DNA of 64,000 nucleotides from an uncultured Veillonellaceae bacterium (GTDB lineage Bacteria; Bacillota; Negativicutes; JARBTT01). The stretch covers positions 608,001 to 672,000 of the forward strand of contig CAWDTA010000002.1 in the NCBI GenBank assembly GCA_963805085.1, written 5' to 3'. The position numbers and the translations under genes were made by a program. A model generated the notes under the pieces. It ran no database searches, was not told the origin of the DNA, and was given only the letters and a program-made list of their open reading frames with translations. Of the stretch, positions 40,153 to 47,822 are shown in pieces; position 1 is the stretch's first letter, and the number at the start of each line of letters is the position of its first letter.

Positions 40153-41184
40153 TTATTTATTTACTACTCCTATATTTACTTGTGGCGTAAGACGAAAATA
40201 GTAATCATCCTGTATGGGATAATATTTAGGAGAACATTTATCCAGAATCGGAAAATCATATCCATTATGTAAATCCTTTAGAGAATCCAGATATACATCA
40301 GACAGTTGAAAATCGAGGTATACTTTATCACCATATTCAGGCTCTTTAAAGGTACCGCTTTCTCTGCGTTTTTTTAATTCAATCGTATCTCTTTTTTCTA
40401 CATTTCCGTGCTTTTCAATACAAAATGTTTCCCAATGTATTGAACCCATGCCTTCCGCGTTCATCCATTCATGAGCCATATCTGTTTGCGCTAATAAATT
40501 GCCTCCTGTACTCAAATTAAGATCAGGGAAATGTGCCATTTCAAACAGTTGGTTTTCTAATCGTTGATATCCAGGCAACATAATGCATCTATCATTACCA
40601 TAAAATAAAATAATTTTACCAGTAGGTTTTGTTACTCTCACAAATTCTTTGAAAATCAATCGTGGATCAGTAAAAATTCCGGGACATAGTGTATCACAGC
40701 ACCATATCCAATCAAAGGTGTTATCTGGAATCGTACATAATTTACCTTCTTCGTCAACATATTGCAAAGGCTTTTGATTAAAATCAGATGTTGCTACTTT
40801 AACACTCAGTTCAGGATAAGTACTATTTAAATATTTCGCTTTAACATTTCTTGCATATTCAACATGCTCTGGTGTGTAGTCAAGACAAAGAATTTCTCCA
40901 TTGTTCTTTATTCCTGAAGATAATAAAGGAAGAATTCCTCCTGGGCCACATCCTGCATCCAGACCATAGCTTCCTTTAGGCAAATTCGCCAATTCAATAG
41001 CTTTACTATATCCCTTCCACATCATACTGTTAAAAGAAAGCATTTGTTTTACATAGGGAGATAAAGTTACTTTCTCGTTATAAATTGTATTTTGAACAAC
41101 GTTTGCCGTCTTTGTAAAGCCTTGATTCTGCATAACCTTTTTATCAGAAAAATAATAATTTGTCCTTCTTATATTTGTTAACAT
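40153..41184 (-). CDS. Class I SAM-dependent methyltransferase
   Basis: GLDAGCGPG motif I; FDWIWC; EFVRVTKPTG. Confidence 0.85.
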   Translation of the reverse strand: MLTNIRRTNYYFSDKKVMQNQGFTKTANVVQNTIYNEKVTLSPYVKQMLSFNSMMWKGYSKAIELANLPKGSYGLDAGCGPGGILPLLSSGIKNNGEILCLDYTPEHVEYARNVKAKYLNSTYPELSVKVATSDFNQKPLQYVDEEGKLCTIPDNTFDWIWCCDTLCPGIFTDPRLIFKEFVRVTKPTGKIILFYGNDRCIMLPGYQRLENQLFEMAHFPDLNLSTGGNLLAQTDMAHEWMNAEGMGSIHWETFCIEKHGNVEKRDTIELKKRRESGTFKEPEYGDKVYLDFQLSDVYLDSLKDLHNGYDFPILDKCSPKYYPIQDDYYFRLTPQVNIGVVNK

Positions 41185-41568
41185 TTTTCCACCTCATATA
41201 CTCTAGAGTACAAGCTCTATTTTTTTAGAAACCCATTTCCTAACCAGAAAAACCTTACTTATGTTCGAAATCACAAATTTTTAGGGCATGTTTACCGAGA
41301 GACTACTTCTATACAATAGGCTTTGTATTACTTCAATGTATCACACACCTCCAATGCCATTTTTTTATTTTACCTCCCCTTTCTTTATCCGTACAAAATC
41401 TCTAATTTTTAGCTAATTGTCCATATCATTTTGGGATTACTAGCAAGCGATATCGCTTAACATCAGCCGAAAGCTCTCCCGAATAACCGAGTGTTTTCAT
41501 ATTTTTCATTTCTGATTTCTAAAAAATAAGCTTTAAAGCCAGTTTTTGCACTACAAAAGTTAATTTGA

Positions 41569-42684
41569 TTAAAATAAATTTATATACTTCATATCTATCT
41601 TTAAATTTTTAAAGAGAAAAGGAAAACAGGTATTGATTATAAACTTTATTTTATAGTTTTCATATTCATACCAAATAGATTTAATGTAAAAATATAACGC
41701 TTTGAATCTATGTAATTTTTTACACACAAAACCTAATGTAAAATACTTTTTAGCAATTTGTTTTTGATAAGCCTTGATGCATGCATCTTTATTTGCTTTC
41801 ATAGTAGCATTTGTGATATATTTAATTCTATTTTTCCTGAATTTAACATGATAATATCCGCAAAAAACCAACTTATTAACAATAGATTTATCATTTATCA
41901 TTTTATCGAAATCAATATTTCTTCGATCAACAAAAAAGTACAGGTTGTCATTATTTCCCTGATTATAAATAAAATGACAGTCTCGTATTAAACAAATTTT
42001 ATGATTCATTATAACTCTTGTTGCAAAATCAATGTCCTCGCTTCCCCAGAATTCCTCATTAAATAGACCTACTTCCTTAATGAGTTTACTATTAAATACC
42101 ATAGTACATATGTGATAGCAGTATAATTCATTTATGACTGCATATTCATAAAAGTCTTCATCGAAAAATATCACATTATCTATTACTTTAGCGTTCAAAT
42201 CGTTAATTGCTTTTACTAATTTATTTGATTCATCAGGCTGATCAAAAGTGCGGTATAACTTGTCTGCTTTTCTTTCCATTACTAAAGAAAAGCAGACATT
42301 TAAATTATACTTTTTTAAGGTTTCAACACTTTTACTTAAATGATGTTCTACCCATTCATCATCTGAGTCTAAAAATGCTAGATAATCTCCTGATGAATTA
42401 ATAATTCCATGATTTCTCGCCCCTGAAACTCCCTTACACCGCTGATTAAGAAAATATCGTATTCTCTTATCAGTTTTAATATAATTATCAACCAAATCTT
42501 TAGTTTCATCAGTGCTATTATCATCTACTATTATTAATTCCCAATTGGTGTATTTTTGTTTAATAACCGAATTAATAGCTTTTGTTAGAGTATATGCTCT
42601 GTTATAAGTTGGTATAATTATACTAACAAGTGGGTCTTTGATATTTTGTTCCATACTAAAATTATTCTCTTGACTTGCATTCAT
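41569..42684 (-). CDS. Glycosyltransferase family 2
   Basis: VSIIIPTYNR, VDDNSTD, ARNHG, FLDSDD, SED. Confidence 0.93.
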   Translation of the reverse strand: MNASQENNFSMEQNIKDPLVSIIIPTYNRAYTLTKAINSVIKQKYTNWELIIVDDNSTDETKDLVDNYIKTDKRIRYFLNQRCKGVSGARNHGIINSSGDYLAFLDSDDEWVEHHLSKSVETLKKYNLNVCFSLVMERKADKLYRTFDQPDESNKLVKAINDLNAKVIDNVIFFDEDFYEYAVINELYCYHICTMVFNSKLIKEVGLFNEEFWGSEDIDFATRVIMNHKICLIRDCHFIYNQGNNDNLYFFVDRRNIDFDKMINDKSIVNKLVFCGYYHVKFRKNRIKYITNATMKANKDACIKAYQKQIAKKYFTLGFVCKKLHRFKALYFYIKSIWYEYENYKIKFIINTCFPFLFKNLKIDMKYINLF

Positions 42685-42749
42685 TTTATCGCTCTCCTTT
42701 GATAACACTACAAACTCCCACTCATGCTTTAGTTCTGAAAAAATTCCAA

Positions 42750-43214
42750 CTAAAAAACGCTGCCAGCATCCTTATAACCTTGCCTTAGACCTTTACCTGC
42801 ATTACATTTAAGTTTATCAGGATTAAACAACATATAATAAACATTCTGTGCATGCTCTCTAGTACGTTTATCCGCAAGCATTGCTAGCTCGGAATTACTA
42901 GAAGTTTCGGACTCATGGACAAAAACCTCAATAATATGTTTGGATGTCATAAGCTGAGCCATAATCAGACCCAGTGAAGCCTCATGAGCACACTGCCTAT
43001 CAATCGACTCAGGCCCTGGCATAGCCAACGCCATAACAATATCACATTTCTCGTTTTCCATTAGGCGCTTACAAGCAACTGGAAGATCTTTCATTCCGGG
43101 AACCGTTTGTCTAATAATGTTAACTGAAGATGTAAGTTTCCTTAACTCAGAAACTGCCGACGAAGCCATATCATAGCGTGCAAACGTAGTATCAATTATA
43201 CCTATTTTCTTCAT
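42750..43214 (-). CDS. ribC: Archaeal-type riboflavin synthase (lumazine-synthase fold)
   Basis: [67 protein letters not shown], as in methanogen RibC; start at MKKIG. Confidence 0.88.
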
Positions 43215-46299: not shown

Positions 46300-46345
46300 A
46301 ATCGCTATTGCATTACTCTTACTTATTTTAAACCTATAAGTTTCC

Positions 46346-46948
46346 CTACACCATCTTAAGTAAGTGATGACATCGCTCTTTCTTAGTTTTTAAATACTGT
46401 CTATTATGAAGATTAGGTGAAATTTCGATTTGCTCTACTTTGATTTCAAAGCCACTATCGACTAACGCTTTTATTTTATCTGGATTATTCGTCATTAATC
46501 GTAATGATCGCATTCCTAATTCTTTTAATATGTATACAGCAAAACTATAGTCTCTTGAATCATTGGCAAATCCAAGTTTTATATTTGCTTCAACAGTATC
46601 TAAGTTAAATTTTTGTTGAAGATAATAAGCATTTGCTTTATTAAATAACCCGATTCCTCTCCCTTCTTGTCTAAGATAAATTAAGACACCTAATTTTTCA
46701 TCAGCAATTCTTTTCATTGCTTCTCTTAATTGGTTCATACAATCACATCTCAAGGAAGTAAATACCTCACCAGTAATACATTCAGAGTGAATTCTTACTA
46801 ATGCACCTTTTTTTAATGTTTTTATATTACCCATTGATAATACAATCGGATTACTCCCATCAAACAATTCAAATACTTGGGTCTTAAACTCCCCAAACTC
46901 CGTAGGCAGTGTAAATTTTTCTGAAGACCTCATAACCAATTTTTCCAT
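46346..46948 (-). CDS. ribA: GTP cyclohydrolase II
   Basis: VRIHSECITG...RCDC, RQEGRGIGL, DSRDY, LMTNNPDK. Confidence 0.95.
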   Translation of the reverse strand: MEKLVMRSSEKFTLPTEFGEFKTQVFELFDGSNPIVLSMGNIKTLKKGALVRIHSECITGEVFTSLRCDCMNQLREAMKRIADEKLGVLIYLRQEGRGIGLFNKANAYYLQQKFNLDTVEANIKLGFANDSRDYSFAVYILKELGMRSLRLMTNNPDKIKALVDSGFEIKVEQIEISPNLHNRQYLKTKKERCHHLLKMV

Positions 46949-47000
46949 TTTTATTAATCTCCTCAACATAGGTTTTCATCTCTAAAAAATTCATCCTTAG

Positions 47001-47822
47001 TCATATATTTAATATTTGTCTTGCTTCTATTGGTGTCGCAATCTCCCTCCCCATCTCCACAGAGTATTTCGTAATACGTTCTACTAATTGTGCATTACTT
47101 GATGCTAATTCATGATATTTATAATAAACATTATCCTCAAAACCCGTTCTTACATGTCCCCCCGCTAAGATACCAGCCAAATTCATAGGCAATTGACTAC
47201 TCCCTACCGCAGCAACAAACCAGTTGCTGTCTTTAGGAATACTTTCAATTAAAAACAATAGATTTTTTACACTAGCTGGTATACCACCATTAACCCCCAG
47301 AACAAATTGAAAATTTAAAGGTCCTTTCACTATGCCTTTTCGTGCAAATTCAACAACATGTCCTATCATTCCAAAATCGAATATCTCAAATTCGGGTCTA
47401 ATTTGGTGCTTGCCAATTTCTTCAGCCAATTTTAAAATAAAGCTTGGTGTGTTAATGAATACCTTACCATTTCTATTAAAAGACCCTGGTGTAAAAGATG
47501 CTATTTCTGGCATACATGTTAATGGTTTTAAACGGCTTGAATCATCTCCGTCCACATTAAAACCTGTGGTTGTTAGACAGATTAATATATCAGTTTTTTC
47601 TCTAATTCGTTCTAATATTTCTCGATATACCTCTACACGCTGACTTGGTGTTCCATCGCACTCTCTTGCATGAATATGGACAATAGATGCTCCTGCATTC
47701 CGGCAGTCATACACAGATTGAGCTATTTCTTTGGGTGTTATCGGTAAATTAGGATTATTCTTCTTTGTTGTAATGCCTCCATTAATTGCGGCGGTAACAA
47801 TCAACTTATTCAACCTTATCAC
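47001..47822 (-). CDS. BKACE / 3-keto-5-aminohexanoate cleavage enzyme family (DUF849)
   Basis: TAAING, PITPKEIA, AGASIVHIHAR, PEFEIFD, GHVRTGFEDN. Confidence 0.92.
   Translation of the reverse strand: MIRLNKLIVTAAINGGITTKKNNPNLPITPKEIAQSVYDCRNAGASIVHIHARECDGTPSQRVEVYREILERIREKTDILICLTTTGFNVDGDDSSRLKPLTCMPEIASFTPGSFNRNGKVFINTPSFILKLAEEIGKHQIRPEFEIFDFGMIGHVVEFARKGIVKGPLNFQFVLGVNGGIPASVKNLLFLIESIPKDSNWFVAAVGSSQLPMNLAGILAGGHVRTGFEDNVYYKYHELASSNAQLVERITKYSVEMGREIATPIEARQILNI

Follow-up and report, generated by a model that had tools for sequence, protein, structure and literature searches.

What product does an operon serve when it interleaves three riboflavin-pathway (rib) genes with five genes of other kinds and lies between two copies of a transposable element? 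The question is raised by an eight-gene array at positions 40153-47822 of a 64,000-nt stretch of DNA (hereafter the window; contig CAWDTA010000002.1 of assembly GCA_963805085.1, positions 608,001 to 672,000) from an uncultured Veillonellaceae bacterium. With a probability of roughly 0.45, we read the array as a horizontally acquired flavin-branch (GTP cyclohydrolase II) operon that may serve a specialised flavin- or lumazine-related product and not housekeeping vitamin B2 synthesis. The evidence for this reading comes from the arrangement of the genes, from a lumazine-synthase-like protein whose active site appears to have been rewritten, and from a parallel with the roseoflavin (ros) loci of Streptomyces. 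The array contains eight intact, co-oriented genes, given here from the first gene to the last together with the one long spacer:

47001-47822, minus strand: BKACE, an enzyme of the BKACE/DUF849 family, 273 aa (PF05853), first gene of the array
46346-46948, minus strand: RibA, a monofunctional GTP cyclohydrolase II, 200 aa (PF00925, TIGR00505)
45442-46287, minus strand: MT1, a class I S-adenosylmethionine (SAM) methyltransferase, 281 aa (Methyltransf_31/25/12/11)
43857-45473, minus strand: GGT-like, an Ntn hydrolase of the gamma-glutamyltranspeptidase (GGT) family, 538 aa (PF01019)
43357-43818, minus strand: RibH-like, a lumazine-synthase-fold protein with a putatively rewritten active site, 153 aa (PF00885, TIGR00114)
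42750-43214, minus strand: RibC, an archaeal-type (pentameric) riboflavin synthase, 154 aa (TIGR01506)
41569-42684, minus strand: GT2, a GT2-family glycosyltransferase, 371 aa (PF00535)
41185-41568, minus strand: spacer of 384 nt between GT2 and MT2, holding the deletion breakpoint 41301 and a mini-ORF (open reading frame)
40153-41184, minus strand: MT2, a class I SAM methyltransferase, 343 aa (Methyltransf_11/31/25)

Gene starts were set by Shine-Dalgarno sites and by exact look-ups in a protein collection, and all eight proteins match their own family over the full length in Pfam and NCBIfam profile searches. The ORFs have good ribosome-binding sites, and the gaps from BKACE to GT2 measure only −32 to 142 nt, the 3′ end of MT1 overlapping the start of the GGT-like gene by 32 nt. 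The same profile searches returned no ribD, no ribB and no Lum_binding-type (bacterial) ribE in the stretch. No Rfam family reached E<=0.1 between 38500 and 49500 (best E=0.49), and no FMN (flavin mononucleotide) riboswitch is found there; the two FMN riboswitches of the genome both lie outside the array. Together with the comparison of the flanking elements described below, these results bear out the first-pass annotation of this DNA, which had described eight co-oriented genes between two complete elements with terminal inverted repeats (TIRs), without ribD, ribB, a bacterial ribE or an evident FMN riboswitch. A promoter scan was uninformative (46 promoter-like sites vs. 42.9 expected), as was a terminator scan.

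Judged by sequence, RibA and RibC look catalytically canonical. RibA scores 191 bits against PF00925, 229 bits against NF001591 (cut-off 148) and 213.5 bits against TIGR00505 (cut-off 205.85); it aligns with E. coli RibA (PDB 2BZ0) at 154 bits and keeps the HSEC...RCDC motif, whose cysteines bind zinc. Its best homologues in the phylum, drawn from 400 other genomes of which 241 gave a match, reach 47-55% identity as parts of RibBA frames of ~400 aa. RibC scores 210 bits against TIGR01506 (cut-off 100.55) and aligns over its full length with the Methanocaldococcus jannaschii enzyme (2B98; 216 bits, residues 2-152 on 3-153), in agreement with the earlier assignment to the archaeal type. Many metagenomic proteins, the named ones being all from Thermoplasmata, share 64-73% identity with it, and proteins of three archaeal genomes, the sole loci that the scan of genome contigs returned (L006-L008), share 61-62%; the scan of metagenome contigs for related loci returned one unrelated locus (34%). 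RibC was found in none of 60 relatives (one same-genus genome included) and in none of the 400 other genomes of the phylum. Because the best named homologues are archaeal and the protein is absent from these 60 relatives and 400 phylum genomes, its sequence points to horizontal transfer from a Thermoplasmata-like archaeon. In the three archaeal loci (Thermoplasmata/Methanobacteriota), ribC adjoins a PF00885-type ribH, as it does here; however, the archaeal RibH proteins are only 23-30% identical to the RibH-like protein of the array, which is nearer to bacterial synthases (41-46%), and the archaeal loci carry none of the array's other six genes.

The RibH-like protein appears to keep the lumazine-synthase fold while both of its substrate sub-sites have been rewritten. 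It matches PF00885 at 121 bits and TIGR00114 at 91.9 bits, 7 bits over the cut-off of 84.6. Aligned with Aquifex lumazine synthase (1HQK; 110 bits over residues 1-149), it shows the changes F22I, N23H, H88S, R127A and K135Y; Lys135 is a catalytic/substrate-binding residue of lumazine synthase. When 1.84 billion representatives were searched exhaustively with HMMER, one orthologue at 93% identity came up (P0121), the next protein being 42% identical. From the 150 best hits of that search we removed nine that were longer than 260 aa, and conservation was judged on 139 others. Conservation reaches 80% or more in 32 columns of these 139 nearest representatives; of these columns the RibH-like protein keeps 23 and deviates at nine (V18L, N23H, E58D, G84S, T86S, H88S, Q123E, R127A and K135Y). 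To these comes F22I, in a column where Phe makes up 78%. Counted over the 140 nearest homologues, H88 is present in 134/140, R127 in 132/140, K135 in 112/140 and F22 in 109/140, whereas the RibH-like protein and its orthologue carry I22, S88, A127 and Y135. No other of the 139 representatives compared has changes at H88 and R127 together. The substitutions touch the phosphate site (G84S, T86S, H88S, R127A, K135Y) as well as the pyrimidine/ribityl site (F22I, N23H, E58D), and the orthologue, intact at 93% identity, has all of them except E58D. The accessible text of PMC12871164 names F22, H88 and R127 as conserved catalytic residues of lumazine synthase and reports very low activity for an R127T variant and for an H88K/K131N variant. 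Since the conserved columns are largely retained while the catalytic residues named there are replaced, we infer that the fold was kept and the pockets were remodelled. A plasmid search with the RibH-like protein gave 125 records, all below 60% identity and all ordinary ribH/ribE genes.

A counterpart to much of the array exists in the roseoflavin loci of Streptomyces. According to the accessible part of PMC11039241, S. davaonensis and relatives carry the rosB cluster rosG-ribE2-ribX-ribY-rosB, in which rosG is GGT-like and ribE2 encodes an archaeal-type synthase ascribed to horizontal transfer; the cluster, rosG and ribE2 included, is strongly expressed during roseoflavin production, and ribE2 is said to increase riboflavin levels. 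A tblastn search of 72,556 plasmids with RibC returned a single record, the Streptomyces camelliae HUAS 2-6 plasmid NZ_CP115301.1, whose annotation shows methyltransferase<-BKACE<-ribA diverging from rosG->ribC(archaeal)->ribX->ribY->rosB. A GT2-family gene lies 1.2 kb beyond; it and a second methyltransferase gene lie within 10 kb. Five of the eight families of the array (RibA, BKACE, methyltransferase, GGT and archaeal-type synthase) thus recur together beside rosB. In both places the GGT-like protein and the archaeal-type synthase are encoded in one operon, three contiguous genes read in one direction encode monofunctional RibA, BKACE and a class I methyltransferase, and the whole sits on a mobile or accessory replicon. 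The gene order differs: here BKACE, RibA, the methyltransferase and the GGT-like protein belong to one operon, whereas S. camelliae has two divergent operons. A further difference concerns the lumazine synthase, which is rewritten here, whereas the plasmid has no PF00885 match besides ribE2. The S. camelliae ribA-BKACE-methyltransferase operon occupies 103172-105558 (L018), divergent from the rosG side, with an overlap of 4 nt between BKACE and the methyltransferase gene.

By tblastn, the array proteins are 44-45% (RibC), 42% (RibA), 36% (BKACE), ~30% (GGT-like) and, over 289 aa, 24% (MT1) identical to their S. camelliae counterparts. In the reverse search, Streptomyces BKACE, RibA, RosG and RibE2 have their best or only hits in the present genome in this cluster, and in a plasmid search with Streptomyces BKACE the next best hit was 38-39% identical. 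Control loci of the phylum do not show this association: another partner of the cluster lies within 1.5 kb in 0/29 of the best BKACE loci and in 0/29 of the best RibA loci, whereas 29/29 of the latter have an ordinary ribH. The earlier statement that the roseoflavin pathway uses neither BKACE, GGT nor GT2 was wrong, given that rosG is part of the rosB cluster and that BKACE and a GT2-like gene stand beside it in S. camelliae. Its proposal to look for conserved synteny was answered only in part: five families do recur beside rosB, but the resemblance is at the family level (24-44% identity), and only very close relatives were found to have the whole set.

The five genes interleaved with the rib genes are less informative about chemistry. 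BKACE covers positions 1-273 of the 274 of PF05853 (323 bits) and is most similar in the PDB to Kce, which cleaves 3-keto-5-aminohexanoate (2Y7D; 234 bits), but it stays under the cut-off of the Kce equivalog NF052387 (332 vs. 382 bits), its neighbours are RibA and a transposable element and not lysine-fermentation genes, and it is at most 49% identical to the proteins of the 29 best BKACE loci among the 400 phylum genomes (102 with a match). The GGT-like protein scores 421 bits against PF01019 and 338 bits against TIGR00066, under the cut-off of 357.85; its best PDB match is 2NLZ (228 bits), it keeps the Thr-Thr nucleophile, it resembles the "cephalosporin acylase" type, which is cytoplasmic, and apart from orthologues no homologue comes nearer than 41% identity. 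MT1, MT2 and GT2 look generic in NCBIfam, PDB and Atlas searches. For MT1, BioC- and Tam-like models stay under their cut-offs and the 57 PDB hits cover generic methyltransferase domains only; for MT2 there are two weak PDB hits, its Atlas neighbours being generic UbiE-like methyltransferases; and GT2 matches PF00535 at 130 bits, with the polysaccharide-type models TuaG, PglI and WcaA all under cut-off. The first-pass annotation had proposed a methylated, glycosylated flavin or pteridine analogue as the product. An analogue of some kind is in keeping with the operon-like array, the rewritten synthase and the ros parallel, but its methylation and glycosylation are pure conjecture, MT1, MT2 and GT2 being generic.

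Several observations weigh against a specialised product, and they concern the chemistry, the conservation of the genes and the state of the assembly. As far as sequence comparison can tell, no enzyme known to form a flavin analogue is present in the array. RosB gave no tblastn hit (E<=1e-4) in the incomplete assembly and no ORF of the array matches its family, PF03358; RosC gave no hit in the assembly at E<=1e-3; RosA, for which no query sequence was at hand, is not named among the PDB hits of MT1 (57) or MT2 (2), although, by the abstract of PMC4982073, the PDB holds a RosA structure; and RibXY was not found here. Because neither RosB, RosC nor a RosA-type enzyme was found, the product is predicted not to be roseoflavin or 8-aminoriboflavin from the known pathway. 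The accessible text of PMC11039241 states that the conversion of FMN to roseoflavin needs only RosA, RosB and RosC; since these three suffice, the accessory genes may be dispensable or serve supply only. GT2, MT2 and the RibH-like protein have no sequence counterpart in the Streptomyces locus (RibH-like against RosB, and GT2 and MT2 against Streptomyces glycosyltransferases and methyltransferases, gave nothing better than E=0.015), and the neighbours of the S. camelliae rosA cluster share nothing with the array. The searchable literature, which did not include the supplements of PMC11039241, holds no link between BKACE and roseoflavin and no role for the ribA-BKACE-methyltransferase trio, and the accessible portions of PMC6709556 and PMC12542839 are silent on neighbour genes. 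The rewritten synthase, moreover, could simply be inactive. Other members of the families are closer to the array proteins (BKACE 49%, RibA 55%, GGT 41%) than are the Streptomyces proteins (24-44%). This last point cuts both ways: since each array gene has nearer kin among unrelated proteins of its family than in the Streptomyces locus, the two sets probably arose by separate assembly, and this speaks for a common function.

Among the very close relatives, the only ones in which the complete set turned up, some have a deletion or truncated genes. A metagenome contig of 50,232 bp, which was assessed through protein clusters only, encodes RibC at 96% identity, RibH-like at 93%, BKACE at 93%, GT2 at 92%, MT2 at 92% (P0130) and GGT at 90%. 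On that contig (proteins P0140, P0142 and P0130) BKACE is called only as a 119-aa C-terminal piece, the GGT-like protein ends at residue 405, and MT2 is called from residue 56, i.e. in a 288-aa form; the truncations are either real decay or assembly frameshifts. All seven sequencing runs hold small shares (0.05-0.10), and none of the holders listed for the stretch is an RNA data set. In run X1, pieces of MT2, GT2, GGT, MT1, RibA and BKACE turn up on contigs that differ by 3-11% of nucleotides. From runs X2, X5 and X7, which come from three studies, only one joint was used as evidence: position 41301 is joined to 47632 in one contig each, a 6.3-kb deletion that leaves MT2 (97-98% identical) beside a 90-nt relic of BKACE. 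Because genes of the relative are called in truncated form and because this deletion form occurs in X2, X5 and X7, we conclude that the gene set is restricted to its lineage and that part of the population is losing it. A mini-ORF of 10 codons (41329-41361, minus strand) with a strong GGGGAGG ribosome-binding site, ~30 nt upstream of the breakpoint 41301, may encode a leader peptide or be due to chance.

The assembly (five contigs, 4.21 Mb) is incomplete, 83% by markers. The only members of PF00885, PF00925 and the archaeal-type RibC family in the assembly are those of the array, and family searches of this incomplete assembly returned no Lum_binding RibE, no RibD_C, no ribD over cut-off and no flavokinase. 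Among 25 relatives, however, flavokinase occurs in 25/25 and the RibD_C domain in 23/25; the essential initiation factor IF-2 was not found in the assembly either, nor was any homologue of the infB/nusA/truB/ribF/pnp neighbourhood of a same-genus genome. The assembly thus lacks a part of the chromosome that bears essential genes, and because of this gap absences in this genome are not trustworthy. One outcome that would have spoken against the first-pass annotation, namely that these are the genome's only rib genes, holds for RibA, RibH and RibC within the assembly; because IF-2 and ribF are missing from it, it need not hold for the genome. What the assembly does contain is a ribB (DHBP synthase) that stands alone, preceded by an FMN riboswitch and next to a gene of the nitroreductase family (C3:143530-144377), and a second FMN riboswitch that precedes an S-component of RibU type, an importer of the ECF class (C2:1534407-1536340).

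If the array does serve a specialised product, the following route can be proposed. RibA would feed GTP into the pyrimidine branch; enzymes of the host, among them the stand-alone ribB on contig C3, would supply the RibD and RibB steps; and RibC would close the flavin ring. The RibH-like protein would accept a different, probably non-phosphorylated, carbon donor or a different pyrimidine; alternatively, it may bind an intermediate or product of the pathway without turnover. BKACE, MT1 and the GGT-like amidase would do the same job as they do beside the ros genes. A bolder version, which we regard as doubtful, holds that a tool-kit of RibA, BKACE, methyltransferase, GGT-like protein and archaeal-type synthase was built independently at least twice, in Streptomyces beside rosB and in the present low-GC lineage, that here a neofunctionalised RibH-like protein, its phosphate pocket removed and its pyrimidine pocket altered, replaces RosB as the analogue-forming step, and that a new natural antivitamin of flavin or lumazine type results; insensitivity to it may then be why an archaeal-type synthase was chosen. 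Were this so, the ribA-BKACE-methyltransferase and rosG genes of roseoflavin producers would have a real biosynthetic role. In any case the locus is a second gene set, outside the actinomycetes, with ros accessory genes but without the key enzyme, and with a remodelled lumazine synthase in its place. It offers a route to a possible new antivitamin and a natural experiment in functional change of the lumazine-synthase fold, and it gives reason to examine the neglected ribA-BKACE-methyltransferase and rosG genes of known producers. RibC, if correctly traced, would also be a clear example of a vitamin-pathway enzyme that passed from an archaeon to a bacterium and is now carried on a mobile island.

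The array could instead be an auxiliary source of riboflavin: RibA and RibC, perhaps with a weak lumazine synthase, would raise or restore riboflavin synthesis, and BKACE, MT1, GGT, GT2 and MT2 would be passengers. The canonical appearance of RibA and RibC, the effect ascribed to ribE2 in Streptomyces (the accessible part of PMC11039241) and the position of RibA, RibH-like and RibC as sole members of their families in the assembly agree with such a role, and because a riboswitch-controlled ribB and a RibU-type importer are present, a host that partly salvages its riboflavin could gain from extra steps. Yet RibD is absent from the cluster and from the (incomplete) assembly, the RibH-like protein lacks the residues for the normal reaction, the array has no FMN riboswitch, and the 32-nt overlap ties MT1 to GGT amid the rib genes. 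The supposed passengers, moreover, belong to families that Streptomyces, too, has next to RibA and an archaeal-type synthase and that are found beside neither BKACE nor RibA in the 29 and 29 control loci. We consider a supply function somewhat improbable on balance. We think it unlikely, too, that the array is decaying cargo, i.e. that genes acquired or assembled by the TIR element are no longer selected as a unit and have no current function, the RibH-like protein being a dead enzyme. The deletion that removes GT2 through most of BKACE in three runs from three studies would fit this idea, as would the truncated BKACE and GGT genes of the close relative, the lack of RibC in the 60 relatives and the lost catalytic residues of the RibH-like protein. 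But all eight ORFs are intact, full length and equipped with good ribosome-binding sites; the RibH-like protein keeps 23/32 conserved columns and is intact, with the same substitutions, in two lineages (93% identity); run X1 holds pieces of GT2, GGT, MT1, RibA and BKACE at ~89-97% nucleotide identity; and the truncations on the metagenome contig may be assembly frameshifts. Should the array make only riboflavin or nothing, it would remain a tidy example of a mosaic, decaying island.

A further possibility is suggested by the flavophos (bsf) cluster of Burkholderia, which, in the accessible text of PMC12871164, likewise combines a DUF849/BKACE enzyme with a lumazine-synthase gene and is aimed at the riboflavin pathway. 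There the BKACE homologue BsfD makes 2,4-dioxopentylphosphonate, an inhibitor of lumazine synthase whose phosphonate is proposed to be held by Arg127, and the inactive R127T and H88K/K131N synthases also gave resistance, which suggests sequestration (PMC12871164). By analogy, BKACE of the array would build a diketone-type inhibitor of riboflavin synthesis, and the rib genes, with an Arg127-less synthase variant encoded in the same operon, would protect the host by bypass or sequestration. We regard this as very improbable. No PepM, Pmm-synthase or PsfC-type oxygenase occurs among the eight ORFs, to which the search for PepM was confined; the synthase of the bsf cluster, BsfB, is a normal one that keeps F22, H88 and R127, all three replaced in the RibH-like protein; RibA, riboflavin synthase, GGT and methyltransferase are all lacking from the bsf cluster; and the model leaves GGT, the methyltransferases and GT2 of the array unexplained. 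A Tyr-to-Phe change at the position of Kce Tyr145, which we considered as a BsfD-like mark, was rejected: Phe occurs there in BKACE of the array, in Streptomyces BKACE and in 2/4 of the PDB homologues with alignments shown, but because 29/29 ordinary BKACE homologues of the phylum have it as well, it is not diagnostic.

Other known systems resemble the array more loosely. The canonical rib operon of Bacillota, as seen in the same-genus genome (G001, contig L015), runs FMN riboswitch-ribD-ribE-ribBA-ribH. It shares with the array a cyclohydrolase (the corresponding half of the phylum's RibBA proteins shows 47-55% identity to RibA) and a member of PF00885; the array, in contrast, has no riboswitch, RibD, Lum_binding-type RibE or RibB domain, and it has an unrelated archaeal-type synthase, a RibH-like protein without the catalytic residues and five non-rib genes interleaved. 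The toxoflavin (tox) cluster combines GTP cyclohydrolase II with SAM methyltransferases outside a rib operon and has a RibD-like ToxE. The array has the first two features in common with it; however, no RibD-like ToxE occurs among its eight genes, and MT1 matches ToxA (PDB 8RDL; E=2.6e-5) only over the SAM-binding domain.

How the genes came to stand together may be connected with the elements on either side of the array:

39135-40133, minus strand: TIR element copy A, with a RAYT-like Y1 transposase of 302 aa that has a C-terminal helix-turn-helix-like tail, and with 43-bp TIRs
47948-48932, minus strand: TIR element copy B, with a transposase of 285 aa, in direct orientation relative to copy A

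The two copies are ~95% identical, each with terminal inverted repeats of 36-43 bp. Their transposase matches PF01797, while REP_Tyr_transpos stays slightly under its cut-off. Within the 4.21-Mb assembly the element occurs in three near-full and three partial copies, all within ~23 kb (30965-53650). Because TIR copies bracket the array and because of the codon composition, we conclude that the array is cargo on a mobile island. The G+C content at third codon positions (GC3) is 0.19-0.25 in seven array genes and 0.33 in RibC; over the 1700 ORFs of the genome with 300 aa or more, the mean is 0.307 (sd 0.058). The array had been called AT-rich; this is right only in a mild form, 7/8 genes lying under the genome mean and RibC above it. 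No target-site duplication is visible at the outer flanks of the TIR copies that bracket the array; Y1/RAYT-type enzymes need not produce one.

Several minor observations complete the picture of the window and its relatives. The C-terminal tail of the TIR transposase weakly matches helix-turn-helix models of MarR type. The blocks of cargo between TIR copies comprise arabinose genes, the present cluster, and a subtilase gene with an IS200 element, and an identical run of 17 letters follows the TIR at ~40127 and at ~53644. Between the same-genus genome G001 (contigs L015 and L016, 24 kb) and the genome studied here (G000), nucleotide similarity is confined to 67 nt of the FMN riboswitch; RibBA and RibH of G001 are 49% and 37% identical to the G000 proteins, so that the genus is either very deep or one of the two bins is mixed. 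At both ends of the window, GC-rich stretches (45-53% GC; 2000-7000 and 59000-64000) with few long ORFs are probably two rRNA operons.

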